Sequence record: DRR378314_146 | Reading direction: 5' to 3' (one strand) | Length of the DNA: 46,033 nt | Shown here: piece by piece, positions 17,662-36,226 of the stretch | Numbering within the stretch: position 1 is the stretch's first letter | Layout: each line of letters begins with the position of its first letter | Notes under the pieces: model-generated | What the model saw: only the letters and a program-made list of their open reading frames with translations | Told to the model about the DNA's origin: nothing | Database searches by the model: none | Program-made: the position numbers and the translations under genes

Positions 17662-19575
17662 TCAATACAGCCCGTTGATCTCCAGCGGCAGCCGTTCGAC
17701 CTTGCGTTCTTTCAACAGGCTGCGTGGCGGTTCCGCGGCATCGGCCTTGCGGATCCGTTTGAACTGGCGTTGTGCCACTGCTGTCGCCTTGTGCTGGCTG
17801 TCGATGACCGTGGGGCGCATAAAGACAAACAGGGTGCGCCGGGTCTGGCTTTTACTGCGCGAGCGGAATAACCCGCCGATGATTGGCGTATCGCCAAGCC
17901 CCGGAACCTTGCCATTGACCGCGCTGCTGTCGTCGGTGATCAACCCGCCCAGCACAATGGTGCCGCCGTCCTGTGCTTGCACCGTGGTTTCGATTACCCG
18001 CCGATTTGTCACCAGATCGGCTGCTCCTTCGACATTTGCATCCACAAGGCTTGAGACCTCTTGCGAGATGTCCAGCCGCACAACCCCGTTCGAGGTCACA
18101 CGCGGCAGCACCTGCATGGTGATACCGACATCGCGCCGCTCGATGGTGGTGAAGGGCGTGGCCGTATTGCCATCCGTCGCAAAAGATCCGGTGCGGAACG
18201 GGACGTTCTGGCCCACCACAATGGTCGCCGGTTTATTGTCCGTGGTGGTGATTGATGGTGTTGACAGCAGATTGGCCTGTGTTGATTGCGACAGCGCCTG
18301 CACCAGAATGCCAAAGTTATCGACTGCACCGCCCAATGTCAGACCACTGGCCAGACCCGATGCCTGACTGACGCCTAGGGCGCTCAGGACATTGCCAAGC
18401 GAGGTGCCACCGTTGCCAAAGGACGTCGCCGCAATGCCGCCGCGAGGAATATTCTCGCCAAGGCCAAGTTGCACACCAAGCCGTTCGGCAACCTCACCGG
18501 AGACTTCGACAATGGCGGCCTCAATCATCACTTGCGCAGGCCGCTGGTCCAGCGCTGCAATCAGGCTGGTGGCTTCCTGAATTTGGGTCGCCGTGCCACG
18601 GATAACAATGGAATTTGTTTCAGTCGAGGCCTGCACGGAGACCTCTGGCGCCGGGCCTGATGGCAAAGGCACCTGATCACCCTCCACCGCCTGCGCCACC
18701 GGATTGGCAATATCCGCGCCCCCTTGCAGGGTGTTTGCAACAATGGCGGCGACAACCTCGGCATCGCCGTATTTCAATGCATAAAGATGTGTGCGTTTTT
18801 GCACTCTTGGATTGCTGCGCGGGGCGACGTCAAGATCGCGGGCAAGCTGCCTGATCTGGCTGATGTCCCTCTCCGTGCCACGTACCAGCAGCAGATTGGA
18901 AGCCGTATCAACAGAGATTTTTGCCCCCGTCCCAGAAGATCCAAGCACCTCGGTCATGGCTTGTGCCACCGTCTCTGCCTCGGCAAAGGCAAATCGGATC
19001 ACCTCGGTGCGCTGTTCCTCGGGCGTGTCAAATGTGCGGGCGATGGCAACAATGCGGTCCACATTGGCCTGCGTGTCGGTAATGATAATGGCGTTCGGAT
19101 CTGTCAGCGCCTCGATATATCCGTTCTGGGCCACCAGCGGGCGCAGCACCCGCACCGCCTCGGCAGAAGGCAGCCGCGCGAGCGGCACCAGTTTAGTGAC
19201 CACATCCTGATCTCCCGCCGGACTACCGGCACCGGCAGCACCTCCTTTGGCAACGGATTGGGTTTCGGGGACAATCTCCCAGATCACCCCGGCCTCAACC
19301 GCCACAAAACCGCGCACCCGCAGCATGGATTGAAACAAGGACCAGACGCCTGCCTGCGTTAGGGGTTTGGCAGAGATCACCGTCACATCCCCTGCAAGGC
19401 CAGGGTTGATCACCAATGTGCGTTCGGTGATTTCAGACACTTGTTCGGCCAGCACGGAAATTTCAGCATTGCGCAGGTTGATCACGAAATCAGCCTTGGC
19501 ATTGTCCAATTGCGCCCAAAGCGCAGAAGGCAACAAGAATACCAGAAGTACAAGATGGGCGGTCAATCTGCGCAT
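17662..19575 (-). CDS. gspD: Type II secretion secretin GspD
   Basis: Signal peptide, N0-N3 domains, QVMIEAAIVEV, LSTPSITTTDN, VGQNVPF, ERRDVGI, KVPGLGD-x-PIIGGLFRS; start 19575 has a GGAGG RBS (alternative 19596). Confidence 0.95.
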   Translation of the reverse strand: MRRLTAHLVLLVFLLPSALWAQLDNAKADFVINLRNAEISVLAEQVSEITERTLVINPGLAGDVTVISAKPLTQAGVWSLFQSMLRVRGFVAVEAGVIWEIVPETQSVAKGGAAGAGSPAGDQDVVTKLVPLARLPSAEAVRVLRPLVAQNGYIEALTDPNAIIITDTQANVDRIVAIARTFDTPEEQRTEVIRFAFAEAETVAQAMTEVLGSSGTGAKISVDTASNLLLVRGTERDISQIRQLARDLDVAPRSNPRVQKRTHLYALKYGDAEVVAAIVANTLQGGADIANPVAQAVEGDQVPLPSGPAPEVSVQASTETNSIVIRGTATQIQEATSLIAALDQRPAQVMIEAAIVEVSGEVAERLGVQLGLGENIPRGGIAATSFGNGGTSLGNVLSALGVSQASGLASGLTLGGAVDNFGILVQALSQSTQANLLSTPSITTTDNKPATIVVGQNVPFRTGSFATDGNTATPFTTIERRDVGITMQVLPRVTSNGVVRLDISQEVSSLVDANVEGAADLVTNRRVIETTVQAQDGGTIVLGGLITDDSSAVNGKVPGLGDTPIIGGLFRSRSKSQTRRTLFVFMRPTVIDSQHKATAVAQRQFKRIRKADAAEPPRSLLKERKVERLPLEINGLY

Positions 19576-19595
19576 GCTGCTCCTCCCCATCCTCA

Positions 19596-20483
19596 TTATC
19601 TCAGCGGAAAGGTCAGCAATAATGCCTGACCGTCCCTCACCACTTCCAGCCGTGCGATGCCGGATGCTGCTACATCGTCATATAGCAGGCGATCACTGTC
19701 GAGATCCCCAACAGCCTGTCCGTTCAACCGCGTTACCACATCACCGGGCCTTAGCCCAGCCAAAGTGACCCCGATGTTGGGGTCTGCCTTGATCCGATAC
19801 CCGTTGTCCACAAGTTCAACACCCACGCTATCCATCGCCGCCTGCGGGTTCTGGGTGATCCGGCCACGCCACAGGTTAATGTATTCCTCTGTGGTCTCTG
19901 GCGGCGGTGCCTCGCGCAGGTCAATCGAGCCATGACCGGGCACAAGGGCGGCCGCCAGTCTGGCAAATGGATCGTTCGGATCCCCCACCTCTGGCTCCGC
20001 TGTCTGTGAAGGGGCGGCGCTGTCGCCAGTCACCACACCGTCAAATCCAACAATCAACAACGCGCCACCGTCTTTTAACGTAATCGTATCTGCGTTGATC
20101 GCAACCAATTCGGCAGATTGAACCATCTCACCAATGCGAAAGACCGAGGTGCTTCCTGCAGCCAGCACAAATGCCCGCGATTGTTCTGGATCAGGGTCAA
20201 CAAGCACACCACGCAACGCAAGGTCCAACTGCCGCCGCGCGTTTGCGGGGGCTACGGTCTGCGCCACTGCAACAGTTTGGCCAAATGGGGCCAGCGCAAG
20301 GATCGCATTGATGTCGCGTGGCGCTTCTATCGATTGATCGACGGGCGGCGCACTTACCTCCATGGGCAAGACATCCGTATGCCCGGAAAGATGCCAGCCA
20401 AGCCGGGTCGCCGCAAACACCAGTGACGCCAGCAACGCCAGAGCGACAAAGAAACTGACCAACCATAGGTGCCTTGCTGTCAT
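19596..20483 (-). CDS. gspC: Type II secretion protein GspC (HR domain plus PDZ domain)
   Basis: N-terminal TM, LALRGVL...SRAFV...FRIGE HR domain, GLRPGDVVTRLNG...VVRDG PDZ; ATGA overlap with gspI. Confidence 0.8.
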   Translation of the reverse strand: MTARHLWLVSFFVALALLASLVFAATRLGWHLSGHTDVLPMEVSAPPVDQSIEAPRDINAILALAPFGQTVAVAQTVAPANARRQLDLALRGVLVDPDPEQSRAFVLAAGSTSVFRIGEMVQSAELVAINADTITLKDGGALLIVGFDGVVTGDSAAPSQTAEPEVGDPNDPFARLAAALVPGHGSIDLREAPPPETTEEYINLWRGRITQNPQAAMDSVGVELVDNGYRIKADPNIGVTLAGLRPGDVVTRLNGQAVGDLDSDRLLYDDVAASGIARLEVVRDGQALLLTFPLR

Positions 20484-20857
20484 TGCACGCCCCCCTTCAG
20501 GGTAAGATAGCCGGTCAGGGTGACCAATGATGCATCCGCCCCCGCCGCTGCATCCGCAACCCGCACTGTCACCGCATGTAATCCCGAACCGGGCAAGGCG
20601 CGGGCGTCTTGCCGCACGGTCCAATCCACCCCAAGTGCGTTGTGCCAGCGGCCCTCCATCGCCAGCCCCAGTGATGTTGCCGCAATGGCATTCTCTGCCA
20701 CCCATCGTGCCACAACCCGGTCTGACAAGCCCCGCGTGCCCGCCGCATGACGCTCAACACCAGTCAACAATGTCATCGCTCCTACAGCAAGCACCGTCAG
20801 GGCCACGAGAGTCTCGATCAAGGTAAAACCGGCATCTGGCATGCGTTGCTCTGTCAT
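20480..20857 (-). CDS. gspI: Minor pseudopilin GspI
   Basis: G|FTLIETLVAL; A-x-WVAEN motif. Confidence 0.88.
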   Translation of the reverse strand: MTEQRMPDAGFTLIETLVALTVLAVGAMTLLTGVERHAAGTRGLSDRVVARWVAENAIAATSLGLAMEGRWHNALGVDWTVRQDARALPGSGLHAVTVRVADAAAGADASLVTLTGYLTLKGGVQ

Positions 20858-21333
20858 GAGCCCCCCTGCCCCGTTTGGGCGGCAAAGCCATCAAAGGTGA
20901 TCAACTGTTGAATACCCCCCGCCACAAGCCGCAGTTGCGCGACCCCTTCGGCGGACGGCACTAAATCAGGTGTGATCCGTAGATTGCCCTGACGGTCACC
21001 GCCAGTTTGCGACAGGAGCGCCCCGCCAGCCAACTGATGTTCCTCATTCAGCGGCGCGGCAGTGGCGACTGTCCATGCCTGCCCCTGCCATTGCAAAAAC
21101 CGATAGCCCGCCACGGTCCAGTCCAGCCGATAATGCTGACCACTGATCAGGCTGCGTTCTGCCGCAAGGTTTATCCGTGCGCTCAGCAAGTTCGCTTCCT
21201 GCTCAATCGTGCGCGCAGCACGGGCCGACGGCAGGGCATAGGTCACCACCCCGGCACTGACGCCAATCAGGACGAGCACGATCAGCACCTCAATCAAGGT
21301 TACACCGCTGTCTTTTAACCGGGCATTACCCAT
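20854..21333 (-). CDS. gspH: Minor pseudopilin GspH
   Basis: G|VTLIEVLIVL, EA-x-x-L...A-x-ERS...G, GYRF...W; lies between gspG and gspI. Confidence 0.85.
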   Translation of the reverse strand: MGNARLKDSGVTLIEVLIVLVLIGVSAGVVTYALPSARAARTIEQEANLLSARINLAAERSLISGQHYRLDWTVAGYRFLQWQGQAWTVATAAPLNEEHQLAGGALLSQTGGDRQGNLRITPDLVPSAEGVAQLRLVAGGIQQLITFDGFAAQTGQGGS

Positions 21334-21802
21334 TGGTCGCTTGTGCCGCACCAAAGGCAATATCGGCATTAGCCCCCTCGCCGCCCGGTTGCCCGTCAGC
21401 GCCAAGGGTGATCAGATCAAACCGGCCAGCTTCGCCGGGAAACCGATACACATATGGCACACCCCAAGGATCCTGCGGCATCACACTCAGATAGCCGTCA
21501 GAGGCCCAGCTGACAGGTTCCGGTGGCACGGTGGGACGTTCGACCAAGGCTGAAAGCCCCTGTGCGGTGGTGGGATAGCTGCGGTTGTCCAGCCGGTAGA
21601 TTTCAAGCGCCCCGGCGATAGAGCGCAAATCACTTTGCGCCACGGTCACCCGCGCCTCATCCGGTCGCCCGATCACATTCGGCACAACCATGGCCGCGAC
21701 CACCGCAATGATCACCAGCACAACCATCATCTCGATCAAGGTCACACCTGCCTGCGGGTCCCGCTTCTTTTTGGGTTTGCTGATGCTAAATTTATGCAAC
21801 AT
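21326..21802 (-). CDS. gspG: Major pseudopilin GspG
   Basis: G|VTLIEMMVV, YRLDN-x-x-YPTTAQGL-x-ALV, DPWG, LGADG-x-PGGEG-x-NADI. Confidence 0.95.
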   Translation of the reverse strand: MLHKFSISKPKKKRDPQAGVTLIEMMVVLVIIAVVAAMVVPNVIGRPDEARVTVAQSDLRSIAGALEIYRLDNRSYPTTAQGLSALVERPTVPPEPVSWASDGYLSVMPQDPWGVPYVYRFPGEAGRFDLITLGADGQPGGEGANADIAFGAAQATNG

Positions 21803-21804
21803 CG

Positions 21805-21831
21805 TGAAACTCTTCCCCTGTCTGATCCGTT
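21805..21831 (+). promoter_or_regulatory. Candidate ECF-sigma promoter for gspLMEF (TGAAAC-N17-CGTT)
   Basis: TGAAACT-cttcccctgtctgat-CCGT, same motif and spacing as the one upstream of the DUF4331 gene. Confidence 0.55.
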
Positions 21832-21909
21832 TTATAGGTAGTGTCACCGTCATCAGATAAGGAAAGCCGCCAAGAATCCCCGCTTTGGACCCTAGCATAG
21901 AAACCCGCT

Positions 21910-23064
21910 GTGAAAAGAAATAAAACACAGTTAAATCAAAATGATACCGGTCTTTTCGAAGATTTAGACGGGGCCAAGAAACTTGACCAGCCGCCGGCGG
22001 TTCCGCTCCATACTCCGCCCGTATCTCGGCCCCTGACACAGCTGGTCGCACCAGATCAAAAACAGCTGATCGAGATTATTCCGGCCGAGCTGGTCGCCCT
22101 GCATGCGCTTGATTTGCCGGTGCGCTCCGCCCGCCAGCGCCTTGCCGCCCTGCCGTTTGCGCTGGAAGAAACTGCTGGGTGCCCGATTGAACAGACCCAT
22201 TTCGCCCTTTGCGGTAGAACGCCGGAGGCGCGGCATCTGGCGGCAACATTGGATGCTGACGATTTTGCCAGACGTATCAGTGCCACGCCTGACCGTGCCC
22301 TTGTAGCGGAACAAATGCTGATTGCACCGGGCCAGCCAGATGAAGCGGGGCGGCACAGCTGGCGGGCATTCCGGGAGCGGGACAGAACCCTGGTACGGGT
22401 GTCTGATGGCACAGGTTTTGCAGCCCGCAGCGACATGTTGGTCACGCTTTGGCACCGCGCCAAAATGCCAGAGGTCGAAAGCTTTGGGGCGTCTTTGCCC
22501 GAGGGGATGCGCTGGCTGGACAGATCGCAAGACGGGCTGCCCCCGGTCGCTGATCTTGCTGTCTTTGACCTTCGGCAAGGGGTTCATCAACCTTCCCGCG
22601 GGCTGCTGCGGCCGCTGAAGCTGCTGGCCGCCAGCATTGCATTTGCCGCAATTGGGCATCTGGCCATTGCAGCCGCTGATGCGCGCGCACAAAGCGCCAT
22701 TGCGGATGATCTGAAAAGTCAGGCGTCTGCTAGCCTTGCCGCCCGTCTGCCAAATGCCTCCGTGGAAGCGGACCCTTCGTTGACCTTACGCCAGCTCACC
22801 GCCCTGAACCAACCCCGGCGCGGATCCGCGTTTTTACCGCTGATGGATCGCGTGTCGCAGGCGTTGCTGGCGCAGGAGGGCACAGTCCAATTCCGCCAAT
22901 TGGCATGGGCCGACGATATATTGCGCCTGACAGTCGAAGCCCCCGGACTTGACGCCCTGCAACAGGCTGAGGCCAGTCTCAAAGCGGTGGGGCTGCGGGT
23001 TAGCAGCGGCTCTGCAACTGCGGATGCGGGCGCTGCGCGGGCTGAATTGACGGTGCGCCCGTGA
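21910..23064 (+). CDS. gspL: Type II secretion protein GspL
   Basis: P-x-E-x-V...LP...ALPFALEE...HFAL cytoplasmic domain, DLRQG, one TM; precedes gspM. Confidence 0.88.
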   Translation: MKRNKTQLNQNDTGLFEDLDGAKKLDQPPAVPLHTPPVSRPLTQLVAPDQKQLIEIIPAELVALHALDLPVRSARQRLAALPFALEETAGCPIEQTHFALCGRTPEARHLAATLDADDFARRISATPDRALVAEQMLIAPGQPDEAGRHSWRAFRERDRTLVRVSDGTGFAARSDMLVTLWHRAKMPEVESFGASLPEGMRWLDRSQDGLPPVADLAVFDLRQGVHQPSRGLLRPLKLLAASIAFAAIGHLAIAAADARAQSAIADDLKSQASASLAARLPNASVEADPSLTLRQLTALNQPRRGSAFLPLMDRVSQALLAQEGTVQFRQLAWADDILRLTVEAPGLDALQQAEASLKAVGLRVSSGSATADAGAARAELTVRP

Positions 23065-23519
23065 AGGCCTTTGCCCAACTCACCCTGCGGGAACAGATCC
23101 TGCTTGCAGGCGGTGCCGCGCTGCTGCTGGTGCTTGGGGCGTGGCTCTACGTCTGGCAGCCGATCACGATGGACCGCGCCCTGCAAAACAGCCGTATCGC
23201 GCGGTATCTGAGCCTGATCGAGATTGCCCGCAGGGCCGACACTGGCACCCCGCCCCCTGTTGCCCTTCAGGCCGACGCCACACCGCTTGCCCCCCGCATT
23301 ACCCAAAGCGCCGAAGCCGCCGGTATTCCGCTGGCCCGTCTGGATCCCGAAGGCGCGCAGCTGCGGGTGACTGTTGCCAAAGTCGGCTATGCCGAGGCCA
23401 GCGCATGGATCGCGTCACTGGAAGCACGGGATGGTGTGCGGGTCTTGGCAATAGAAATGTCACGCCTGACGGAACCGGGCCAGATCACACTGCGCATGAC
23501 ACTGGAGGACGCAAGATGA
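23061..23519 (+). CDS. gspM: Type II secretion protein GspM
   Basis: LTLREQILL + TM + VWQP; W-I-x-x-LE ferredoxin-like domain. Confidence 0.88.
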   Translation: MKAFAQLTLREQILLAGGAALLLVLGAWLYVWQPITMDRALQNSRIARYLSLIEIARRADTGTPPPVALQADATPLAPRITQSAEAAGIPLARLDPEGAQLRVTVAKVGYAEASAWIASLEARDGVRVLAIEMSRLTEPGQITLRMTLEDAR

Positions 23520-25006
23520 CGGGGGCCGCACTGGGTTATAGTTTCGCCAAAGCGCAGGGTGTGCTGCTGAGCAGTGCGGAGACGCCGGACGCCGCACCCA
23601 TTTGCCGCCATCTACCAGATGCCGCCTTGCCTGCTTTGATAGAGGCGCAACGCATCGCCGGTCAGCTGATCCGTTTTGAAACGATTGAGGCGGCAGATTT
23701 TGACAAGGCGCTTTCAGCAACCTACCGCGACAGCGCATCAGAAGCGGCCAACATGGCCGAAGACGGCAGTGATGATCTAAGCGCCTTGGCCGAAACAGCG
23801 GCCAGTGTGGATGATCTGCTGGATCAGAAGGACGACGCCCCTGTGGTCCGGCTGATCAACGCCTTGCTGCTGGAAGCGGTCAAGGATGGCGCATCAGATA
23901 TCCATATCGAGGTTGAGGAAAAGCGGCTGGTGGTCCGGTTTCGGGTCGACGGTGTGTTGCGCGAAGTGCTTGAACCCCGCCGCGCATTGGCACCGCAATT
24001 GTCCAGCCGGCTGAAGGTAATGGGCAAGCTGGATATTGCCGAAAAACGCCTGCCGCAAGACGGGCGTGTCAGCTTGCGGGTGGGCAGCTACGAGTTGGAT
24101 GTGCGGATCTCTACCCTGCCATCGCAATTTGGCGAACGGGTAGTGCTGCGCCTGCTGGATCGCGGGCAAACGCAACTGGGCATCGCCCATCTGGGCATGA
24201 GCGAACGTGACAGCGCGGTATTTAACCAGATCATCACGGCCCCCGAAGGTCTGGTTCTAGTGACCGGCCCAACCGGATCGGGCAAAACCACTTCGCTTTA
24301 TGCTGCACTACATGCGCTGAATGACCGCCAACGCAACATCCTGACGGTTGAGGATCCGATAGAATATTCGATGGACGGCGTAGGGCAGATTCAGGTCAAT
24401 GCCAAGACCGAGATGACCTTTGCCCGCGGCTTGCGTGCCATTTTGCGGCAAGACCCGGATGTCATTATGGTTGGGGAAATCCGCGACGGTGAAACCGCAA
24501 AGATCGCTGTAGAAAGTGCGATGACCGGGCATCTTGTCATGTCGACCCTGCACACAAACACAGCCATTGGTGCCGTTTCGCGTTTGATTGATATGGGGGT
24601 GGAGCGCTTTTTGCTGGCCCCGATGCTGCGCGGATTGATGGCACAGAGACTGGTGCGTAAACTGTGCCCCGATTGCCGGGTGCCCCATCAGGTCAGCGCC
24701 GCAGAGGCCGCCTTGCTCTCTGGTGCATTGCCTGTCGGAACCCAGGTGTTTGCGGCAAAGGGCTGTGACACATGCGGCGGCACCGGGTATCGCGGACGCG
24801 TGCCGGTTTACGAGATCATCACCATGACCCCCGGGCTTGAGACAATGATCCACGAGGGCGCGTCAGAGGCCGATCTGACCAGTGAAGCCCGCAAAACCGC
24901 ACCCGGCATCCTGCAAGACGGGGCGCAGAAAATCCGTGACGGGTTAAGCACAGTGCAGGAAGTTGCCCGCGCGGTGCGCGATGACGGTTTGGCAGGGGGC
25001 AGTTAG
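23516..25006 (+). CDS. gspE: Type II secretion ATPase GspE
   Basis: ASDIHIE, LDIAEKRLPQDGR, Walker A GPTGSGKT, LRQDPD...GEIRD, TGHLV-x-STLH, CPDC/CDTC Zn motif. Confidence 0.96.
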   Translation: MTGAALGYSFAKAQGVLLSSAETPDAAPICRHLPDAALPALIEAQRIAGQLIRFETIEAADFDKALSATYRDSASEAANMAEDGSDDLSALAETAASVDDLLDQKDDAPVVRLINALLLEAVKDGASDIHIEVEEKRLVVRFRVDGVLREVLEPRRALAPQLSSRLKVMGKLDIAEKRLPQDGRVSLRVGSYELDVRISTLPSQFGERVVLRLLDRGQTQLGIAHLGMSERDSAVFNQIITAPEGLVLVTGPTGSGKTTSLYAALHALNDRQRNILTVEDPIEYSMDGVGQIQVNAKTEMTFARGLRAILRQDPDVIMVGEIRDGETAKIAVESAMTGHLVMSTLHTNTAIGAVSRLIDMGVERFLLAPMLRGLMAQRLVRKLCPDCRVPHQVSAAEAALLSGALPVGTQVFAAKGCDTCGGTGYRGRVPVYEIITMTPGLETMIHEGASEADLTSEARKTAPGILQDGAQKIRDGLSTVQEVARAVRDDGLAGGS

Positions 25007-25007
25007 G

Positions 25008-26216
25008 ATGCCTGCATTCCTCTACCGTGCGGTTGATCCGGCGGGCAAAAAATTCAAGGGTTTGTTGGAGGCCGCGAATGAAACCGCCGTCCGTGCGCAA
25101 TTGCGCAAACGCAAGCTGCTGCCGCTCTCGGTAGAGGCGACACAACAACGGGCGGGGGCGGCGACCGGCCTAAGGCCGCATCGGATGGCGCTGAAAAAAC
25201 AGGTTCTGGTCACCCGCCAACTGGCCACGCTGGCAGGTGCGCGGGTGCGGATCGAGGATGCGATCAAGATAGTCGCGGATCAGATGAAGGGCGCGCGGGA
25301 TATCTCACTTTTGTTGAACATGCGCAGCGCAATCATTGACGGGCGCAGTTTTGCCGAAAGCCTTGAGGATGCATCAGGCAGCTTTGACGAGTATTACCGC
25401 GCGTCCGTGCGGGCGGGGGAAAGCGCCGGTAAACTGCCACAGGTGTTGGAACATCTCGCCGTGCATATCGAGGACCGCGCCCGCAATCGCCAGACCTTAC
25501 AACTGGCGTTGATCTACCCTGCCCTTTTGGCACTGGTGTCTCTGGGTGTCATTGTGGCGCTGCTGACTTTTGTGGTGCCGGATATTGTGCGGGTGTTCAC
25601 GGCGCGGGGGGCGGAATTGCCTGCCCTGACCCGTGGATTGATTGCCGTGTCGGACTGGTTGCAACGCTGGGGGTTGATCAGCGCGGGCATTATGGCGGCG
25701 GCCATTGTCAGCATGCTGGCGGTTTTGCGGCAGCCAGCAATGCGCCTGCGCTGGGACAGATGGCTGACCCGCGCACCGGGGATCGGTGCCTTGACCCTGC
25801 GGCTGAATGCGGCGCAGTTTTCTGGCACTTTGGCGACATTGGTGCAATCGGGTGTCCCTCTTTCCGACGCATTGGCTGCGGCGGCGGGGACGGTGCCAAA
25901 CCGCTATATCCGCGCCCGCGTCGCACAGATCACACAGAACGTGCAGGATGGTGCGGTGCTGTCGAAATCGGTCGAGGCTGCCGACGTCTTTCCCCCCATG
26001 TTGGTTGCGATGATTGCCAGTGGCGAGGCGGGGGGCAAACTGGGGGATAGTCTGGACCGTGCGGCACGGGATCAGGCGGCATCGTTGAAGGCGACGGTGA
26101 CGGCGATTGTCGCATTGGTTGAACCTGCCGTCCTGCTGGTGATGGGTGGGATCGTCATGCTGTTGGTAATGTCGATCCTGATGCCGATTGTGGGGTTGAA
26201 TGCGCTTGCAGGGTGA
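25008..26216 (+). CDS. gspF: Type II secretion inner-membrane protein GspF
   Basis: MP-x-F-x-Y-x-A, TRQLATL, AGESAGKL, ALIYP, LP-x-LTR, FPP...MIASGE, EP. Confidence 0.95.
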   Translation: MPAFLYRAVDPAGKKFKGLLEAANETAVRAQLRKRKLLPLSVEATQQRAGAATGLRPHRMALKKQVLVTRQLATLAGARVRIEDAIKIVADQMKGARDISLLLNMRSAIIDGRSFAESLEDASGSFDEYYRASVRAGESAGKLPQVLEHLAVHIEDRARNRQTLQLALIYPALLALVSLGVIVALLTFVVPDIVRVFTARGAELPALTRGLIAVSDWLQRWGLISAGIMAAAIVSMLAVLRQPAMRLRWDRWLTRAPGIGALTLRLNAAQFSGTLATLVQSGVPLSDALAAAAGTVPNRYIRARVAQITQNVQDGAVLSKSVEAADVFPPMLVAMIASGEAGGKLGDSLDRAARDQAASLKATVTAIVALVEPAVLLVMGGIVMLLVMSILMPIVGLNALAG

Positions 26217-26957
26217 TCAGAACGGCAGCGTCAGGCGGATCGGGCCGCCACGGGGCAATTGTGGAAACACCTCCGCTGCCGCTGGGTGCAGCAGAATGCC
26301 CAACGTCCGGGCGCGGCTGACGCGAAGTTGTGCCAGTTCCGCCGACTGCGCCCCCGTCAGGGTCACCACCCCATCCTCCCCCAAACTGCGCAAGCGCAAG
26401 ATCAGAGGTGGCATCGCAGTCTCGCGCTGGTTCTTTTCGCAGCGCCCCGCAGGTGTGCTTATCTCTCCCGTCGCGGTAACCCTACGCCAGCCCCAGCGCA
26501 TCCCGACATCACGAAGACGGGCAGTCATATCACATGCCCATGCACCCGGCACCAATTGGGTCAACCCCGGTCCGGCCCGGCCATTGCCGCCTTGTACCGC
26601 GATGCCCCGCACCCCGGTCTGCACAATACCATCTACCCGCGTGTCATCACCGGCCAGCGTAAAGCCGGTGGCAAGATGAGGCAGCGGGAACACTTTGACG
26701 CGGCTGTTCCAGTCCAGCTGATATCCGCCCTTAAGCACAGCGCGACCGGTGCGCAGGTTGCCGTAAACCGCCACCACGGCTGGTGCCAAATTCAAGTGTC
26801 GTGTAAACAGACTTACCGGCATCCATACCCCAAGGATGCCTGCCAGTGAGACGAGGATCCCACATGCCAAAACCAATCCAGCCCCCCAGCGCAACAAGAT
26901 ATGGAACGGCCCCCGGCCCGTCACGACGGCGGCTTTTGGCGGGTCTTTCTGCGGCAT
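26217..26957 (-). CDS. gspN: GspN-like type II secretion protein
   Basis: N-terminal TM ending WMP, then G-x-L-x-x-G...L-x-W beta pattern, two Cys, C-terminal ...LTLPF; GGAG RBS before ATG 26957; lies inside the gsp locus. Confidence 0.55.
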   Translation of the reverse strand: MPQKDPPKAAVVTGRGPFHILLRWGAGLVLACGILVSLAGILGVWMPVSLFTRHLNLAPAVVAVYGNLRTGRAVLKGGYQLDWNSRVKVFPLPHLATGFTLAGDDTRVDGIVQTGVRGIAVQGGNGRAGPGLTQLVPGAWACDMTARLRDVGMRWGWRRVTATGEISTPAGRCEKNQRETAMPPLILRLRSLGEDGVVTLTGAQSAELAQLRVSRARTLGILLHPAAAEVFPQLPRGGPIRLTLPF

Positions 26958-27979
26958 CTCTGGTCTCCCTTGGGGCAGGTTGCGGGCAAGTTGCCTTCCC
27001 TGCAAGCGGTGCATCGCGAAACATTGGCGGGCCACGGAAATCCGCGCTGCTATTGCCACTTTCAGGTGCCTCTGCCGAGTTAGGCCAGACATTGCAAAGC
27101 GCCGCAACCCTTGGCGGCGGGCCGGGCATCGGGATTGAGATCATCGACAGCGGATCGACCCCGGAAACCGCTGTTTCCGCCGCACAGGCAGCCGTTGCTG
27201 CAGGTGCCAAGATGATTGTCGGGCCGGTGTTCAGCGCACAGGCGGAAGCGGTGGGCAAAGCAGTTCGTGTGCCCTTAGTAACCCTGTCCAATAACGAGGC
27301 ACTGGCTGGGGGTGGCACCTATGTGTTTGGCGTCACGCCCACGCAATCCGCACAGGCGATCCTGTCGATTGCCGCACAGCGCAATCTGCGCGAGGTCGCT
27401 GTCATTGTCCCGCCGGGGGCTTTTGGCGCACAATCAGCAGCGGCGGCTGAAAAAACCGGGCGTGCCCTTGGCCTGTCGATGCGCCCGGCCCTGGTCCTGC
27501 AAAACGCTGATGACCTGTTGGCCGCACTGCGTGCCGCCGGGGGGCTGCCGAACGCGGTCTATCTGCCCGCTGCGGATGCAACGCTTGAACCTTTTGCGCA
27601 GGCTTTGCGCGGTCAGGGCATCCAGCTTTTGGGCTCGACACAATGGTCGGCATTGGACCTGTCAGGCCGTGCCGCTTTTCGCGATGCATGGTTTGCCGCC
27701 CCTGATCCGCTGCGCTTTGCCGCTTTTGACGATGCGTTTTCCAAAGCTGCTGGTAAACCCGGCGGCATCATCAGCGGGCTGACCTTTGACGCGGTCGAAC
27801 TGCTGCGCATTCTGGGGCAGTCCGACCAATTGTCGGCAAAGGGACTGACGCGCAAGGAGGGTTTCACCGGGGTTGTCGGCCCCTATCGGTTTCAAAAATC
27901 CGGCTTGTGCGAAAGGGGTCTGGGTGTTCTCAAGGTTGGCGCAGGTGAATTCAGCTTGATCGGCAGCACCTCGGTATGA
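26864..27979 (+). CDS. LpoA/LppC-like (type I periplasmic-binding fold) Tat lipoprotein
   Basis: SRRRLL twin-Arg signal and LGAG|C; ALLLPLSG, MIVGPVFS, LSN, LLGS-x-QW, GFTGV-x-G-x-YRF...ER-x-L; GAGGA RBS before ATG 26864. Confidence 0.8.
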   Translation: MPKPIQPPSATRYGTAPGPSRRRLLAGLSAASLVSLGAGCGQVAFPASGASRNIGGPRKSALLLPLSGASAELGQTLQSAATLGGGPGIGIEIIDSGSTPETAVSAAQAAVAAGAKMIVGPVFSAQAEAVGKAVRVPLVTLSNNEALAGGGTYVFGVTPTQSAQAILSIAAQRNLREVAVIVPPGAFGAQSAAAAEKTGRALGLSMRPALVLQNADDLLAALRAAGGLPNAVYLPAADATLEPFAQALRGQGIQLLGSTQWSALDLSGRAAFRDAWFAAPDPLRFAAFDDAFSKAAGKPGGIISGLTFDAVELLRILGQSDQLSAKGLTRKEGFTGVVGPYRFQKSGLCERGLGVLKVGAGEFSLIGSTSV

Positions 27980-28527
27980 GCAAAGGACGCAGCCCCGAAA
28001 CAGGGCTGAGCCTGATCGAAGTGCTGGTCTCTCTGGCGATATTTGCATTGATCGGCATCGCCGGTCTGGCCGTGCTGAACACGGTCGCCCGCACCGGTGA
28101 GCGCACCGATGGCAGGCTGGACCGGCTGGCCGAACTGGACCGCGCCTTTCTGCTAATTTCACGTGATCTGGCACAGGTCAAAGGGGCGCAAATGACATTA
28201 GGCGACGGCGCGCTAGCGTTTCAACGTACCGGAGCACCCCGCCCCTTTAAAATCTCATTTTCCTTGCAGGACACCACCATGATCCGCCGCGTTGATCTTG
28301 GCACCAGCCTGCCGGTTGATCAGCACCTGCTTTCAGGGGTGGCCACAATACAATGGCGCCTGTTGGATCACAGCAAAAGCTGGCACGCCGTCTGGCCACC
28401 AGTCGCGCTGGACCCGCGAACCCGGCCACTGGCTGCTGAGCTGACTCTTGGCATCTGGCGCGATGGGGTGGAAGGTGCCGGCTCCCTGACCCGTCTGTTC
28501 CCCCTGCCCGCAGGACGAGGCAAATGA
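27976..28527 (+). CDS. gspJ: Minor pseudopilin GspJ
   Basis: G|LSLIEVLVSLAIFA, L-x-RA...RDL-x-Q, LL-x-GV, W-x-x-x-WP. Confidence 0.88.
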   Translation: MSKGRSPETGLSLIEVLVSLAIFALIGIAGLAVLNTVARTGERTDGRLDRLAELDRAFLLISRDLAQVKGAQMTLGDGALAFQRTGAPRPFKISFSLQDTTMIRRVDLGTSLPVDQHLLSGVATIQWRLLDHSKSWHAVWPPVALDPRTRPLAAELTLGIWRDGVEGAGSLTRLFPLPAGRGK

Positions 28528-29384
28528 ACCAGCGCAGGAAAGACAGCGGTGTGGTGCTGGTCAATGTGCTGGTCGTGCTGGCGATTGCAGGCGGCTTGAT
28601 GGTCCTGCTGATCTCCAGTCAGGAGGCCGCGCTGGACCGGATCGCCCGCGCGGCGGATGCCTCCGTGATGACACAGATCGCCATGGGGGCAGAGGCCAGC
28701 GTGGTCGATGCCCTGCGTCGTGATCTGGATGACGCCCCGGAAACAGACCATTTTAACGAACCATGGGCGCGTAGCGTGATACAGGATGAGGTGCTGCTGC
28801 CCACCGGCCGGTTCTCTGTACAGATCACCGATCTGCAAGCCAAGTTCGACGTGAACCTGCTGATGGATGTGACCGCCGGCACGCAGGACTTTGCACGCCG
28901 CCTGATGGTCGCGGTTGAACAACCGCCCGAAATGGCCAACCGGATCGCGCGGGTTCTAGCCGCCATTGGACCCGTGGCAAAGCTGGAAGATCTGGAAAAC
29001 TACGGTGTCTCACAGGAAACACTGGCAGCAATTGCCCCACATGTAACTGCCTTGCCCGTTCCGGGGACAATCAATCTGAACTCGGTCAATCCGTTCCTGC
29101 TGAATGTGATGCTGAAAAACCGAAGCCAAACCGCACAGCTGATCCGAACACGTGAGAGCCGTGGGGCGCTGTCGCGGGAAGCGCTGCACAATGTCGGTGC
29201 CCTGCGTCCGCAAAACAGCGGCTTCACCTCAAATGCCTATCTTGTCGATATCCTGGCAACCGCCGGGGAGGCGCAGATCAGGATGCAATCTGTTGTCATC
29301 CGCCGCAATGCGCGAGGAGAAAAAGCAGTGGAGATTGTAGAGCGCCGCTTTCTGTATGAAGATCCCGACATAGCCACAAATTAA
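28524..29384 (+). CDS. gspK: Minor pseudopilin GspK
   Basis: G|VVLVNVL (no E5), A-x-GAE, DH-x-x-EPWA, I-x-DLQAKF-x-VN, IN-x-N. Confidence 0.88.
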   Translation: MNQRRKDSGVVLVNVLVVLAIAGGLMVLLISSQEAALDRIARAADASVMTQIAMGAEASVVDALRRDLDDAPETDHFNEPWARSVIQDEVLLPTGRFSVQITDLQAKFDVNLLMDVTAGTQDFARRLMVAVEQPPEMANRIARVLAAIGPVAKLEDLENYGVSQETLAAIAPHVTALPVPGTINLNSVNPFLLNVMLKNRSQTAQLIRTRESRGALSREALHNVGALRPQNSGFTSNAYLVDILATAGEAQIRMQSVVIRRNARGEKAVEIVERRFLYEDPDIATN

Positions 29385-29385
29385 A

Positions 29386-29411
29386 CGGCCCCCGAAAGGG
29401 AGGCCGCATTT
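29386..29411. terminator. Hairpin terminator between convergent gspK and the small lipoprotein gene
   Basis: CGGCCCCC-GAAA-GGGAGGCCG stem-loop with T-rich tail. Confidence 0.6.
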
Positions 29412-29431
29412 CGTTGTTTGTTCTCAACCGT

Positions 29432-29638
29432 TTAGGGGTTGAAGGGTTCTGCTGTCAGGCTGACCGCAATGTCGACGCTTTGCGCATCTACAGGCTCTGC
29501 ATTGCGATCCGCATCAAACATGGCGCGGAAGGCGCTGCCAAGGGTGTCAATACCCGCAACCGCAACAGCGGAACTGCCACAGGCGGCAACAAACAGAACA
29601 CCGGCAAGCACCACAGAGGATTTTGATTTCAGTCTCAT
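29432..29638 (-). CDS. Small predicted lipoprotein (68 aa), unknown function
   Basis: AAGGAG RBS, basic n-region, lipobox VAA|C; starts 12 bp after the DUF4331 stop. Confidence 0.8.
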   Translation of the reverse strand: MRLKSKSSVVLAGVLFVAACGSSAVAVAGIDTLGSAFRAMFDADRNAEPVDAQSVDIAVSLTAEPFNP

Positions 29639-29650
29639 ATCAACTCCTTC

Positions 29651-31213
29651 TTAGTTGGTTGCGCCGGGCAGAGGTGTGTTCAGGTAGGGGAACACATTCT
29701 GCAATTCAGCCGCCGAAATCGGCGCACCATCAATGAACGGCGCGTTGCCCACGGGCGCATCTTCCGGGGCGCAAAGACCCAGATTGATCATGTCGCTGTC
29801 GGTATCTTCCACCGCCCCTTCAATGCCCAGTTCAGCACCCAGTGGCAGCGGGTGACACAAGGCCCCCATCACAACACGCAGCGCAATATCAACGGTATCA
29901 TCCCCCGGACGGCGCCCATTTGGAAAACCAGCAAGATCTTCGGCAACAACGCCAAAGGCACTTTGATCCGCGCGGGCGGTGGCCGGAATGGCCGTGTTCA
30001 GGCGCATCATTTCAGACGCCGTGACTGTGGCCTGCTGGTTCACCCCCGGAAAGCCGGTCAGGAAAGCGGTCACAAGGTCGGTCCGCGGCAGGTTCGATGG
30101 CGCAATATTCGAGGTCGCCCCAAGTGGTTCGCGGAACAGGATGTCGATCAAGGCCGGCAATGTCGGGTTGGTCACATAGGTGGCCAAAGCGCCGTCCTGT
30201 GTTGGCTCTGCCGCGTTGAACAGATCCTTATCCGGCAGGCCGATCACAACTTCATTCACCAGCGGTGCTGACAAACGCGATTGCTGTACATAGGCACCAC
30301 CATAGACGGATGTTGCCGCATAGGTTGGTGACGGATCTTCGACATTCCCCTGTGGCAGGCTTGCCGTGGTCCAGGCACCAATCACGCCGTTTCCTTCACC
30401 GGTCACACAGCTGATAGGCACTTCAAGCGCCAGCGAGGTGACATTGAATCTGTCAACCAGATCATCATTTGCACGGTCGTTGGTGATAGACCCTTCCAGC
30501 GGCACAAGGTTCACAAGGTCAAACACCTCTCCAAGGTTCACGGCAAAGGCTTCTGCGCGCTGCCCGACAAAGACCTTGCCCGGCATTTCACACCCTGGGA
30601 TCGAGATGGTCTGGATCTTCGCATTGGCATAGGCTTCGTAATCAGGGATCGTCTTTTCACCAATGTTATCAATCGGCTTGCTGAAAGACGTCTCACCACC
30701 AGTGCCAGTCACCGGCGTCGCTGTGCCAGAGCGACGATCGCCCGCAATATGCGTCACGGTGTAGCTTTCGATTTCATTCAAAGGATCACTGGCAGCACCT
30801 GTCAACGGGCCCGCGGTGCGCAAAGGAATGGCAACCGTGGCGTCCCCGATTTGCAAGGCAATACCGCCCCCATCATTGGCAAGCTCGTTTTTGAAATCAA
30901 ACTGAAAGGTGACATCCTCAACTGCGTCACCGTCGTTGTCGATATGAATTTCATAGATCGCATCAGGATCCATCGTGAAATAGTTCGGCCCGCCATATGG
31001 GGCCTGCAAAGGAATGTAGTTGGCAATGAAGGTCACGTAATCCTCACGCCCCGGTTCGTAACTGCGGAACATGTAAAAATCTGACGCATCGACTTTCGGC
31101 TGTTCGGTAATCCCCGGCGCTTCGCGGTGCGAGGATGCTGTTGCTGCCGAAGCAACAAGAGCGGCCGCGCTGACCGTCATTGCAAATTTTGCAGCATTAT
31201 TCTTAAATCGCAT
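29651..31213 (-). CDS. Secreted DUF4331-family protein
   Basis: Sec signal then SSHREAP, DFYMFRSYE, YEIHIDNDGD, VFVGQR, NV-x-SLALEVP, PLVNEV, GFPNGRRPGDD; CAGGAG RBS before ATG 31213. Confidence 0.88.
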   Translation of the reverse strand: MRFKNNAAKFAMTVSAAALVASAATASSHREAPGITEQPKVDASDFYMFRSYEPGREDYVTFIANYIPLQAPYGGPNYFTMDPDAIYEIHIDNDGDAVEDVTFQFDFKNELANDGGGIALQIGDATVAIPLRTAGPLTGAASDPLNEIESYTVTHIAGDRRSGTATPVTGTGGETSFSKPIDNIGEKTIPDYEAYANAKIQTISIPGCEMPGKVFVGQRAEAFAVNLGEVFDLVNLVPLEGSITNDRANDDLVDRFNVTSLALEVPISCVTGEGNGVIGAWTTASLPQGNVEDPSPTYAATSVYGGAYVQQSRLSAPLVNEVVIGLPDKDLFNAAEPTQDGALATYVTNPTLPALIDILFREPLGATSNIAPSNLPRTDLVTAFLTGFPGVNQQATVTASEMMRLNTAIPATARADQSAFGVVAEDLAGFPNGRRPGDDTVDIALRVVMGALCHPLPLGAELGIEGAVEDTDSDMINLGLCAPEDAPVGNAPFIDGAPISAAELQNVFPYLNTPLPGATN

Positions 31214-31292
31214 CTGTCTCTCCTGATTGGACGGCATCGCATTTGATTCACGGGATACCATTTTGTAGATTTTTTATTATCTGTATGAGGAG

Positions 31293-31320
31293 ATACGGGA
31301 TGGCTGACAGTTTAGTTTCA
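31293..31320 (-). promoter_or_regulatory. Candidate ECF-sigma promoter for the DUF4331 operon (TGAAAC-N17-CGTA)
   Basis: Minus strand reads TGAAACT-aaactgtcagccatc-CCGTAT, about 80 bp before the start codon. Confidence 0.55.
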
Positions 31321-31358: not shown

Positions 31359-31808
31359 TTGTTAAGCTTGATTTATATTCAAGCAATAGTTTTGACCTTC
31401 GTTCTGGCGCGGCTCTCTTGGATTGATCTTCGGACATTTCGCCTGCCGGATGTTTATACTTTGCCATTGATCTTGGCGGGGCTGATCCTCGCAACAGGGG
31501 ACAAGGGGGTCGGACTGCCCGCGTCCCTGCTCGGCTGCCTGCTGGGCTTTGCACTATTCTGGGCTGTAGGGCAGTATTACTTCTGGCGCACGGGGCAGGA
31601 AGGATTGGGGCTGGGCGACGCCAAGCTTTTTGCCGCAAGTGGTGCATGGCTCGGCCCGGAAGCTTTACCTTATGTATTGCTGATCGCGGCACTGGGGGGG
31701 CTGGTGTTTTTACGGATGCGCAAAAACGCTGTCAGGCGGGAAATCGCATTCGGTCCCTGGCTGGCACTTGGATTCTGGCTGGTCTGGATCGCTGAACACT
31801 TTGCCTAA
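31359..31808 (+). CDS. gspO: Prepilin peptidase, A24 family, short form
   Basis: Catalytic WID...LPD and GLGLGDAKL, IAFGPWL; no N-terminal tetracysteine domain. Confidence 0.85.
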   Translation: MLSLIYIQAIVLTFVLARLSWIDLRTFRLPDVYTLPLILAGLILATGDKGVGLPASLLGCLLGFALFWAVGQYYFWRTGQEGLGLGDAKLFAASGAWLGPEALPYVLLIAALGGLVFLRMRKNAVRREIAFGPWLALGFWLVWIAEHFA

Positions 31809-31834: not shown

Positions 31835-32779
31835 TCAACCGCTGGCCGCATCCATTTCCAGACGCTTCTGAAGCAGTTGGCGCGCGCGGTCAAAGGTCGG
31901 CTTGACGCGTTTGGTCTTGCTTGCATTTGGACGAAAAGGACGGCCCAATACGACGGCGACAGGGCACCCCAAACTCGCCTTTTTCAACGAGGGCGATGCC
32001 GCCAGAATTGTCTTGATCGTAGGTTCCAACCCAAGCCATTCGTCCTGAATACTACAGGCTGCAATCAAAATGAATGTGCCGGATCCGACATAGCTGCCCA
32101 GCAATCGGGTGTTGTCGGCTGCGGCTGAAATACTGTTCCAGACCTCCGACAATACAGTGGCAAGCTCCTGCTCTGTGCAGCTTCGGTACAGGGCATCAAA
32201 CGACTGAATTTGCCCCGCAAAAACAGAGGTTTCATCAACCCGGTAGCGTTCCATGGTCGACAGGTAATTGCCCAGTGAAAACACATCGGTATGTTGTTTG
32301 ACACCGCGCAGGCAAACGGCATCCTCAAGAGCAAAACAATGCTGCCCTTCCGGCCCATCCAGTTTGGATTGCAACGCGTTGATATCCAGCGTGATCCGGT
32401 TTTCTGCCATCATACGTTCGGCAATCTGCAACCTTATGCCAATGCCTTTTATGTCAAATGGTTTGGTGATGTAGTCATTCGCACCTGCCCCGAACGCGCT
32501 TTCGATGGAGCGGCTATCGGAATGCGCAGTCAGCATGATGATCGGCGTGTCCGCATAATAACGCAGTTTGCGGATCTCGCGGCACAGAACAACGCCATCC
32601 ATACCCGGCATCGCAATATCCAGCACCAAGACATCAAACCCGCTGTCGTCCCGCACAAGAATATCAAGTGCCGCAGGACCAGAGCCCGCAACAACAACTT
32701 CGTCGTGGCCTTCTTGCTTCAGGATAACCTTCAGCAAATCTAAAACAACTGGGTCGTCATCTACAGCGAGAATTCTCAT
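31835..32779 (-). CDS. Response regulator: REC plus degenerate GGDEF-like output
   Basis: ILAVDDD, LDIAMP, MLTA, ITKPF; C-terminal SYVGSGTF. Confidence 0.85.
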   Translation of the reverse strand: MRILAVDDDPVVLDLLKVILKQEGHDEVVVAGSGPAALDILVRDDSGFDVLVLDIAMPGMDGVVLCREIRKLRYYADTPIIMLTAHSDSRSIESAFGAGANDYITKPFDIKGIGIRLQIAERMMAENRITLDINALQSKLDGPEGQHCFALEDAVCLRGVKQHTDVFSLGNYLSTMERYRVDETSVFAGQIQSFDALYRSCTEQELATVLSEVWNSISAAADNTRLLGSYVGSGTFILIAACSIQDEWLGLEPTIKTILAASPSLKKASLGCPVAVVLGRPFRPNASKTKRVKPTFDRARQLLQKRLEMDAASG

Positions 32780-33022
32780 CTTGTTTCCTTGCGAACCATA
32801 AGTTGAATTCAGTGGTGCCTCACAATCTGGACAAATTTGTGAAAAGACTTGGCCAATTTTGAGAGATTCAGCGGGTTTAAGGCGGTTATGTGAAATTCTA
32901 TCTGAAGTTGTCTTAATGTTGTCACAACCTCGTCATTGATTTGCCGGGGATGAGTGGTTTCTTGCTTCGGTAAACATAGGCGCTCAATTTCATGCGCCGC
33001 TCTTGAATAGGAAACGACAACC

Positions 33023-33988
33023 ATGCGTATTTTGGTAGTAGATGATGATCCGGTAATCCTTGATCTCCTTGCCGATTGTTTGACCGAGGAACTTGGTTAT
33101 CATCTTCACATGTATGATTCAGCGGAAAGTGGTCTGGAGGCGTTGCATACGTCACAAGAGCCATTTGACTGTATCTTGCTGGACATCATGCTGCCCGGAA
33201 TGGATGGCATTCAGATGTGTGAGCTGCTGCGCCAGACAACACAATGTTGTTCAACACCGATCCTGATGATCACCGCCAGCAACGAAGTCGGGCTGATGGC
33301 ACGGGCCTTTGAGGCGGGTGCGACCGATTTCATCAATAAGCCGTTGAAGCCGGTGGAATTGACCGGGCGTGTTGTGATGGCCGGCCTGCTGAACCGCAGC
33401 CTTGCCAAGGCACAACACACAATGAGCGCGCTGAGTGATTCATTGAAACTGCGGTTCGAAGAGCCGCTGGACCTTGAGGTTCCCGGGATGACCAGCATCC
33501 TTGCTCATGAGAACCTGTTGCTGCGTTGCAATGCAAACTGCTTTGTAATGACCATGTTTACGCTGAACGTATCAGGGCTGCGCGGCATTTATCGGACTGT
33601 CAGGTCCCCTGCCTTCCGCCAGTGTCTGGAAACGATTGGGACTGCAGCCATTGAAACCCTGGGCCAGCACAATGTGAACCTGTCCTACATTGGCAATGGC
33701 CGTTTCTTTGGCACCGTCATGGACCGCAAGCGTCTGGATCAGGACAAACTAAACGAGGAACTTGAGGCAAATCTGTTGGCCACATGGGATTTCACCCAGA
33801 CCGGTGTACCGGTTCCGCCGACATGTACCTTTTCACAGGTTTCTCCCCAGCGCATGTGGTCAAATCTATCCGCCAGTGACAAACTGCGCGATTGTATCAA
33901 CGTCGAGGCCGGTGGAAACCATCTGACCTCCAGCGAAGAGAATGACCTTTTTGCCCGGCTGAACAACAAGCTGGCACAGGAAGGTTGA
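33023..33988 (+). CDS. Response regulator: REC plus degenerate GGDEF-like output
   Basis: ILVVDDD, LDIMLP, MITA, INKP; C-terminal SYIGNGRF. Confidence 0.85.
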   Translation: MRILVVDDDPVILDLLADCLTEELGYHLHMYDSAESGLEALHTSQEPFDCILLDIMLPGMDGIQMCELLRQTTQCCSTPILMITASNEVGLMARAFEAGATDFINKPLKPVELTGRVVMAGLLNRSLAKAQHTMSALSDSLKLRFEEPLDLEVPGMTSILAHENLLLRCNANCFVMTMFTLNVSGLRGIYRTVRSPAFRQCLETIGTAAIETLGQHNVNLSYIGNGRFFGTVMDRKRLDQDKLNEELEANLLATWDFTQTGVPVPPTCTFSQVSPQRMWSNLSASDKLRDCINVEAGGNHLTSSEENDLFARLNNKLAQEG

Positions 33989-36213: not shown

Positions 36214-36226
36214 CTTAGGTCTCCGA

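Follow-up and report, generated by a model that had tools for sequence, protein, structure and literature searches.

The closest precedent for an extracytoplasmic function (ECF) sigma factor that drives a type II secretion system (T2SS) together with its substrate is VreI of Pseudomonas aeruginosa, which raises the expression of the Hxc T2SS cluster and of the gene encoding its secreted substrate, the alkaline phosphatase PA0688 (PMC2729926). Here we analysed a stretch of 46,033 nucleotides (nt) from sequence record DRR378314_146, referred to below as the window, in which one bipartite element, TGAAACT-N15-CCGT, precedes both the gspL operon of a T2SS and a nearby gene encoding a DUF4331 protein. 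We consider it probable that both copies are promoters of a single ECF-family sigma factor, most likely an ECF18-like factor with a membrane RskA-type anti-sigma factor. In common with VreI, the candidate sigma gene lies beside the T2SS in some relatives of the window (genomes G100, G109, G126 and G135); unlike the candidate, which has an RskA-type anti-sigma factor, VreI depends on cell-surface signalling with a FecR-like regulator and a TonB-type receptor (PMC2729926). The two systems also differ in that the sigma gene is unlinked to the T2SS in the window's own lineage, and in that DUF4331 is a domain of unknown function.

Promoters of the Bacillus subtilis sigma factor SigW, whose anti-sigma factor is RsiW, read TGAAAC-N16-CGTA. 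The likeness is confined to the nearly identical letters of the -35 and -10 boxes; SigW is a Firmicutes factor with another type of anti-sigma factor (RsiW), and its ECF group is unrelated. Group ECF18, as described by Casas-Pastor et al., comprises proteobacterial sigma factors only, with two conserved cysteines in the sigma-4 domain and a single-pass RskA-like anti-sigma factor encoded at position +1; they are not always autoregulated, and the promoter predicted in the supplement has TGCATCTT as the -35 box and CGTA as the -10 box (PMC7826278). Members include RpoT, LitS, RpoP and Rsph17029_3536, of which LitS controls photolyase and RpoP is tied to nickel and cobalt resistance (PMC7826278). 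The candidate sigma factor presented below resembles this group by its RskA partner at +1, its sigma-4 cysteines, a CGT in the -10 box and the presence of photolyase among the motif-bearing genes; it differs in its link to a T2SS, since no member is described as a T2SS regulator in the account that PMC7826278 gives of the group. In Mycobacterium tuberculosis, the regulon under SigK and its anti-sigma factor RskA is small and consists of secreted or surface proteins, MPT70 and MPT83 (PMC7509140). This pair likewise places an RskA-paired sigma factor over secreted or surface proteins, but it is actinobacterial, belongs to ECF19, uses another promoter and involves no secretion machine (PMC7509140). 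Set against this known theme of ECF regulons, two touches are unusual here: a T2SS among the targets in a roseobacter, and a putative target promoter placed within the sigma factor's own codons.

Both copies of the element that had been noticed in a sequence-only reading of the window were borne out. Site 1, TGAAACT CTTCCCCTGTCTGAT CCGT, faces gspL, and site 2, TGAAACT AAACTGTCAGCCATC CCGT, faces the DUF4331 gene (Table 1). The distance to the start codon, given earlier as about 80 bp, measured 79 nt at site 1 and 81 nt at site 2. Both sites are intergenic and face their gene as described, with the correction that both intergenic regions are divergent: site 1 lies between the start codons of gspG (ATG 21802, minus strand) and gspL (GTG 21910), and site 2 between those of the DUF4331 gene (ATG 31213, minus strand) and of a prepilin peptidase gene (31359, plus strand). 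Sites 1 and 2 are the only exact matches to TGAAACT-N15-CCGT in the window. Allowing one mismatch added a single further match (1347-1372, minus strand); in 100 shuffles of the window scanned at the same tolerance the mean was 0.55 matches, and three matches were reached in 1 of the 100. When the scan was relaxed to GAAAC-N16/17-CGT, four matches were found, and sites 1 and 2 were again the only intergenic ones. Both sites read GAAAC-N17-CGT, which agrees with the layout of ECF promoters (AAC in the -35 box and CGT in the -10 box, 16-17 nt apart). Transcription would be expected to start at about 21836-21839 on the plus strand for site 1 and at about 31286-31289 on the minus strand for site 2.

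Site 1 abuts the beginning of the divergent gene. Only 3 nt separate its -35 box from the start codon of gspG, which in many relatives overlaps the T of the box (caTGAAAC), and the gspG ribosome-binding site (GGGGAAGAG, minus strand) falls inside the spacer. The gspG transcript must therefore begin beyond the predicted gspL promoter, and the divergent transcripts would overlap. Another conserved block, tagCATAGAAA, was noted in the same intergenic region at window positions 21888-21909, about 10 nt before the gspL GTG; it is kept in closer relatives (L025, L026, L028, L030 and L033).

Conservation of the motif was followed through the genus. gspG was detected in 44 of 113 genus genomes, and 30 of these loci were fetched. 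The gspG-gspL intergenic region contained TGAAACT-N14-16-CGT oriented toward gspL in 25 loci and cGAAACT-N15-aCGT in 4, so that GAAAC..CGT precedes gspL in 29/29 readable loci, the remaining locus ending at a contig edge. DUF4331 was detected in 9 of 61 relatives, and six genomes of the genus contained a full-length orthologue. All six have TGAAAC-N16/17-CGT upstream, in surroundings that could not be aligned by eye. Across orthologues GAAAC and CGT are fixed at a distance of 16-17 nt, while spacer and flanks diverge.

The same analysis was extended to other genera using 80 named genome loci encoding DUF4331, 78 of which had at least 200 nt of upstream DNA. The set includes Sulfitobacter, Aquicoccus, Pelagibaca, Marivita, Roseivivax, Oceanicola, Pseudooceanicola, Marinovum, Thalassococcus, Profundibacterium, Roseobacter, Oceaniovalibus, Cypionkella and others. 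DUF4331 is linked to a T2SS in 48 of the 78 loci, in the same order gspO-DUF4331-gspK...gspL-gspG, and 42 of these 48 carry NGAAAC-N15-18-CGT within 330 nt upstream of DUF4331; by our own arithmetic, chance would give about 0.02 matches per region of that length. The remaining six include one-letter variants, GGAACT..CGTG in Aquicoccus (L209) and TGAAACT..GGTG in Limimaricola. Among the 30 DUF4331 loci without a T2SS gene in the fetched DNA, the motif was present in 4, three of them on contigs shorter than 5 kb. Toward gspL, it was found in 38 of the 41 other-genera loci that hold both gspL and gspG. Judged by these footprints, the recurrence of the motif before gspL and DUF4331 is more than chance. 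The sequence-only reading had named loss of the motif upstream of orthologues as an outcome that would count against it; the motif is instead kept before both genes, within the genus and in many genera of the Rhodobacterales. A second type of T2SS cluster (G119, G103 and G017), with a GspG about 50% identical, was set aside as unrelated, having another gene order and no motif at a promoter position; its sole recurring motif match falls within the range of the GspO match.

No sigma-factor domain was detected among the 47 window open reading frames (ORFs) scanned with Pfam, and the sigma factor would thus be encoded outside the window. Genome-wide searches were made on the nearest genome (G001), which shares 70% of sampled words with the window and has nine sigma-70-family genes. 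The candidate ECF sigma factor, of 189 amino acids (G001:C1:605516-606082), is encoded far from the counterpart of the window locus, and was found in 78 of the 113 genus genomes. The ORF directly following it encodes an RskA-type anti-sigma factor (PF10099; L009:1926-2660), as also in L200, L201, L202 and L204. Two sigma-4 cysteines, C136 and C186, are kept in 30/30 orthologues. On these features the sigma factor is likely ECF18-like, a candidate rather than an established member of the group.

This sigma factor is tied to the motif by its position in other genomes, where copies or paralogues adjoin motif-bearing genes in regions that we fetched and scanned. In G126, G109 and G135, gspG-H-I-C-D runs directly into an ECF sigma gene, rskA and a DUF4198 gene; the G109 cluster also has a prepilin peptidase gene and a DUF4331 gene preceded by the motif. 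A motif-bearing DUF4198 gene, sigma and rskA come in this order after gspD in G100 (GspG 87% identical to that of the window). The order in G025 is motif, DUF7282, sigma, rskA, motif, DUF4198, and in G095 a motif-bearing DUF7282 gene and the sigma gene are divergent neighbours. A sigma/anti-sigma pair under the same motif, which had been suggested as something to look for, was therefore found: G025 has a predicted motif-driven DUF7282-sigma-rskA operon, an autoregulated layout. Footprinting, the linkage of the sigma gene to its presumed targets and the lack of a sigma domain among the window ORFs together support the earlier proposal that one ECF sigma factor encoded outside the window would co-induce both transcription units. 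Two neighbouring features of these clusters are recorded here. A second ECF sigma gene stands beside the T2SS/DUF4331 cluster of G109 (L202:1504-2714), after an ORF of 176 amino acids of no known family, the pair being preceded by the motif; and in G100 the gene after the sigma-RskA pair next to the T2SS encodes an autoinducer synthase (L200:10820-11608).

The motif was also found inside the coding sequence of the sigma factor itself (Table 1). The codons for A-K-L-F-G-V-C-L-R-V read GCG AAA CTH ... CGT GTN, which is GAAAC-N17-CGT, in 30/30 orthologues. Codon choice within the motif departs from that elsewhere in the same sigma genes: the Lys codon is AAA in 30/30 (48% elsewhere), the Arg codon CGT in 30/30 (16%) and the Ala codon GCG in 28/28 (32%), and the Leu codon CTG is never used (48%), counts that are inflated by kinship among the orthologues. 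The Phe, Gly, Val and Cys codons of the spacer vary freely. With neighbouring silent sites near saturation, this pattern is most simply read as selection on the DNA letters. The intragenic motif points into the remainder of the sigma gene and rskA; it may act as an internal promoter, through which sigma activity would raise the level of its own anti-sigma factor.

Further motif-bearing genes were identified from the G001 scan and from orthologous loci. Exact TGAAACT-N15-CCGT occurs five times in G001, compared with once for the reversed control: two matches are the counterparts of sites 1 and 2, two fall within long ORFs or on their opposite strand, and the last, in an intergenic region, stands about 30 nt ahead of a gene for a small secreted protein matching DUF7282. 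An overlapping pair of motifs in the same genome (G001:C1:1443705-1443752) was taken as chance, being inside an open frame of 278 amino acids. DUF7282 is present in 61 of the 113 genus genomes, and GAAACT-N15/16-CGT stands about 25-45 nt before its start codon in 30/30 loci examined. G119 and G120 (L316 and L317) have DUF7282 but no match to the sigma factor; their -35 box reads TGATCC or TGGTCC with CGTA kept, which looks like a hand-over to another sigma factor. In G001 the motif lies 53 nt before a photolyase gene, and across loci L073 and L286-L315 GAAACC-N16-CGTG precedes photolyase in 12 of 16 sigma-positive compared with 1 of 14 sigma-negative genomes, the single sigma-negative exception being an 84%-complete genome. 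The photolyase motif overlaps a sigma-70-like promoter, TTGAYT..CTAAST. In G004, G029 and G016 (L137-L139), (T)GAAACT-N16/17-CGT occurs after rskA, 180-500 nt ahead of DoxX-like genes, with an MsrB gene also downstream in G029. Further targets of the same factor would thus be the secreted DUF7282 protein and, in relatives, DUF4198, photolyase and the MsrB/DoxX genes.

The motif might instead be read by the general stress sigma factor EcfG, or by another core ECF sigma factor rather than an RskA-paired one, although we regard this as unlikely. The alphaproteobacterial EcfG consensus, GGAAC-N16/17-CGTT, is one base from GAAAC..CGT, and the Aquicoccus variant before DUF4331 has its GGAAC; G001 carries an EcfG/NepR locus (L011), and the RskA-paired sigma gene is itself without the motif upstream of its start codon. 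However, among more than 100 sites nearly all have A as the second letter of GAAAC, and the region upstream of nepR-ecfG in G001 reads GGAAC-N17-GTT, not GAAAC. The motif also tracks the RskA-paired sigma factor, both in the photolyase comparison and in its loss from G119 and G120, and it is this sigma factor that is linked to T2SS, DUF7282, DUF4198 and DUF4331 genes in several genomes. Still less probable is that the element is not a promoter but the binding site of a DNA-binding regulator, for example a neighbouring response regulator (31835-35131), as might be thought from the three response-regulator genes, the Hpt gene and the two sensor kinase genes that flank the locus. Two short blocks at a fixed distance of 16-17 nt around a free spacer, with AAC and CGT as the hallmark letters of ECF promoters, speak for a promoter, as does the orientation of the element, which always faces the downstream gene 30-240 nt before the start codon; unlinked loci and genomes without a gspG match carry the motif as well, and Pfam recognised no DNA-binding domain in the response regulators. 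A chance likeness, or conservation of site 1 merely through the gspG translation start region, can practically be dismissed, since, although a 7-mer common to two 100-nt regions is not rare and site 1 does overlap the gspG start codon and ribosome-binding site, the DUF4331, DUF7282 and gspL footprints already contradict it, site 2 and the DUF7282 and photolyase sites keep letters and spacing with no overlapping gene start, and the sequence from ribosome-binding site to start is not normally fixed at such divergence (GspG identity down to 63%).

Several observations nevertheless weigh against reading both sites as promoters of an ECF18-like, RskA-paired sigma factor. Relaxed to TGAAACY-N15/16-CGT, the motif has 58 matches in G001, most of them intragenic, and the reversed control 37; the letters alone being only mildly enriched genome-wide, the argument rests on conservation. 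In G001 none of the sigma-70-family genes has the motif ahead of its start codon, so that classical autoregulation is not seen there, and the same search was negative in G012, G004, G029 and G016. The -35 box, TGAAACT, differs from the TGCATCTT predicted for ECF18, with 6 of 8 letters in common (PMC7826278). Two of these observations come from the published transcriptome table of Sulfitobacter D7 (PMC9873259, supplement 2), in which the gene at the DUF4331 position, B5M07_11935, was assigned by position and length only. The gspL-position gene, first after the predicted promoter, is flat in the first two comparisons (log2 changes of -0.02 and -0.18; 0.33 in the third), and expression at the DUF4331 position decreases about 4- to 10-fold in samples 10-15, which make up the last two triplets, with no such decrease in the T2SS genes (PMC9873259). 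The same table reports B5M07_11935 as the most expressed gene of the cluster, except for gspD with about an equal mean, and in two of the three comparisons its increase goes along with increases in gspD, gspE and the LppC-like gene, at low counts: log2 changes are 1.48, 0.84 and 0.17 at the DUF4331 position, 1.33, 1.65 and 0.24 for gspD, 0.83, 1.65 and 0.28 for gspE, and 4.3 and 4.4 in the first two comparisons for the LppC-like gene (PMC9873259). The transcriptome support for co-regulation is mixed.

If both sites are indeed read by the RskA-paired sigma factor, the anti-sigma factor would release it upon a signal and RNA polymerase would start a few nucleotides past CGT. The gspL-M-E-F...J-K operon would be transcribed rightward and DUF4331 leftward, which would raise a portion of the secretion apparatus and the adjacent secreted protein at the same time. 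The relatives of the sigma factor and the content of the regulon suggest redox, light or metal stress as possible inducing signals.

The shared promoter had been presented as independent evidence that the T2SS and DUF4331 work together as machine and cargo. The co-regulation of the gspL operon and DUF4331 is well supported by the conserved motif; the step from there to cargo is weaker than was claimed. Co-regulation and conserved adjacency (48/78 loci) fit export of DUF4331 through the T2SS, and a GspL-family match was found elsewhere in 4 of 5 genomes with unlinked DUF4331, in three of them above the Pfam cut-off. Two points weaken this inference. DUF4331 keeps the same sigma family where it is not adjacent to a T2SS: in Hyphomonadaceae-/Maricaulaceae-type genomes (Algimonas, Litorimonas, Hyphomonas, Henriciella and Ponticaulis) it occurs without an adjacent T2SS, and in most of these loci it adjoins a related ECF sigma gene, rskA and/or a DUF4198 gene (e.g. 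L218, L221, L226-L229, L234 and L242). Hyphomonadaceae-type DUF4331 is preceded by TGCACC-N16/17-CGTAAC, which matches the ECF18 consensus and was seen there only. The motif also stands before DUF7282 and photolyase in genomes without a gspG match, including 11 of the 30 motif-bearing DUF7282 loci, so that the sigma factor would be general for the genus and not specific to the T2SS. The T2SS and DUF4331 would therefore belong to a wider envelope regulon rather than forming a private pair, and DUF4331 is an unproven candidate for T2SS cargo.

The predicted N-termini of the secreted members have a feature in common. All full-length aligned DUF4331 N-termini show, by eye, a hydrophobic segment ending in small residues (some rows being partial tblastn ranges). 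In 26/26 aligned sequences the last residues of this signal-like segment are [A/G]-x-S and an invariant HREAP comes next, with the cleavage point placed by eye. The corresponding segment of DUF7282 (L140-L169) ends in A-x-A followed by H in 30/30, and the DUF4198 protein of G025 (L204:3535-4419) reads ...QA and then HEFW. Cleavage according to the usual -3/-1 rule, again judged by eye, would leave mature DUF4331, DUF7282 and DUF4198 proteins that all begin with His. A histidine as first mature residue is the hallmark of metal-chelating 'N-terminal histidine' proteins. DUF4198 has been described as a secreted nickel-binding protein that uses its N-terminal histidine (PMC12537917). It is conceivable, though we hold it as no more than a tentative idea, that a redox-, light- or metal-responsive ECF18-type sigma/RskA switch of marine Rhodobacterales controls secreted proteins with an N-terminal His, that a dedicated T2SS was recruited to send DUF4331 out of the cell, where it would act as a metal-capturing or redox protein, and that the intragenic promoter of the sigma gene provides a built-in negative feedback via the anti-sigma factor, written in synonymous codons. 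DUF4331 has more than 8000 relatives. A PDB sequence search with DUF4331 gave no match, an ESM Atlas search gave no usable match and a literature search for the family found no paper; an AlphaFold2 model from a 26-row alignment had a mean pLDDT (predicted local distance difference test) of 51, too poor for use.

Table 1. Predicted promoters, the intragenic motif and genes around the two sites (window coordinates unless a locus is named; genes called by a Pfam scan of the window ORFs).
Feature	Coordinates	Strand	Remarks
Predicted ECF-type promoter, gspL operon (site 1)	21805..21830	+	-35 TGAAAC 21805-21810; -10 CGT 21828-21830; 17 nt from GAAAC to CGT
Predicted ECF-type promoter, DUF4331 gene (site 2)	31295..31320	-	-35 TGAAAC 31320-31315; -10 CGT 31297-31295
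Intragenic motif, candidate sigma gene	L009:1519-1546 (G001:C1)		Same place in L170-L199
gspG-H-I-C-D operon	17662..21802	-	Pfam; divergent from gspL
gspD	17662-19596	-	Pfam
gspC	19596-20705	-	Pfam
gspI	20480-20857	-	Pfam
Pseudopilin gene	20854-21405	-	Pfam
gspG	21326-21802	-	Pfam
gspL operon	21910..29384	+	Pfam
gspL	21910-23064	+	Pfam
gspM	23061-23519	+	Pfam
gspE	about 23516-25006	+	Pfam
gspF	24963-26216	+	Pfam
ORF without Pfam match	26200-26679	+	In gspL operon
LppC/periplasmic-binding-like gene	26846-27979	+	Pfam
gspJ	27976-28527	+	Pfam
Probable gspK	28524-29384	+	No Pfam match here; counterpart in a relative (L202:5852-6703) matches T2SSK
DUF4331 gene, 520 amino acids	29651..31213	-	PF14224, E 4.5e-142; N-terminal signal-like segment, then invariant SHREAP
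Prepilin peptidase (A24 family) gene	31359..31808	+	PF01478; divergent from DUF4331

The pairing of prepilin peptidase and DUF4331 genes around site 2 is conserved across genera, with a GspO match 150-400 nt ahead of DUF4331 in the majority of T2SS-linked loci. The interval that separates gspF from the LppC-like gene (window positions 26200-26850) holds overlapping open frames on both strands with no Pfam match; its counterpart in the published annotation of D7 is occupied by a T2SS-like gene on the minus strand. A signalling cluster adjoins the T2SS at 31835-41283 and encodes three response regulators, an Hpt protein, a PAS histidine kinase and a CHASE-PAS hybrid kinase; the C-terminal parts of the three response regulators (about 200 amino acids each) have no Pfam match.

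To our knowledge, nothing is in print on the control and the substrates of the T2SS in roseobacters. The system is uncommon in this group; for an alga-killing Sulfitobacter it has been proposed as a possible means of virulence (PMC9873259). Collectively, the data presented here define a testable regulon, with a defined motif, a candidate sigma/anti-sigma pair and a short list of putative members: the gspL operon, DUF4331 and DUF7282, together with DUF4198, photolyase and the MsrB/DoxX genes in relatives. The sigma/rskA pair would provide a handle for switching on the T2SS and seeking its cargo, and the putative promoter within the codons of the sigma factor, an unusual arrangement, may hold wider interest for the design of ECF feedback.

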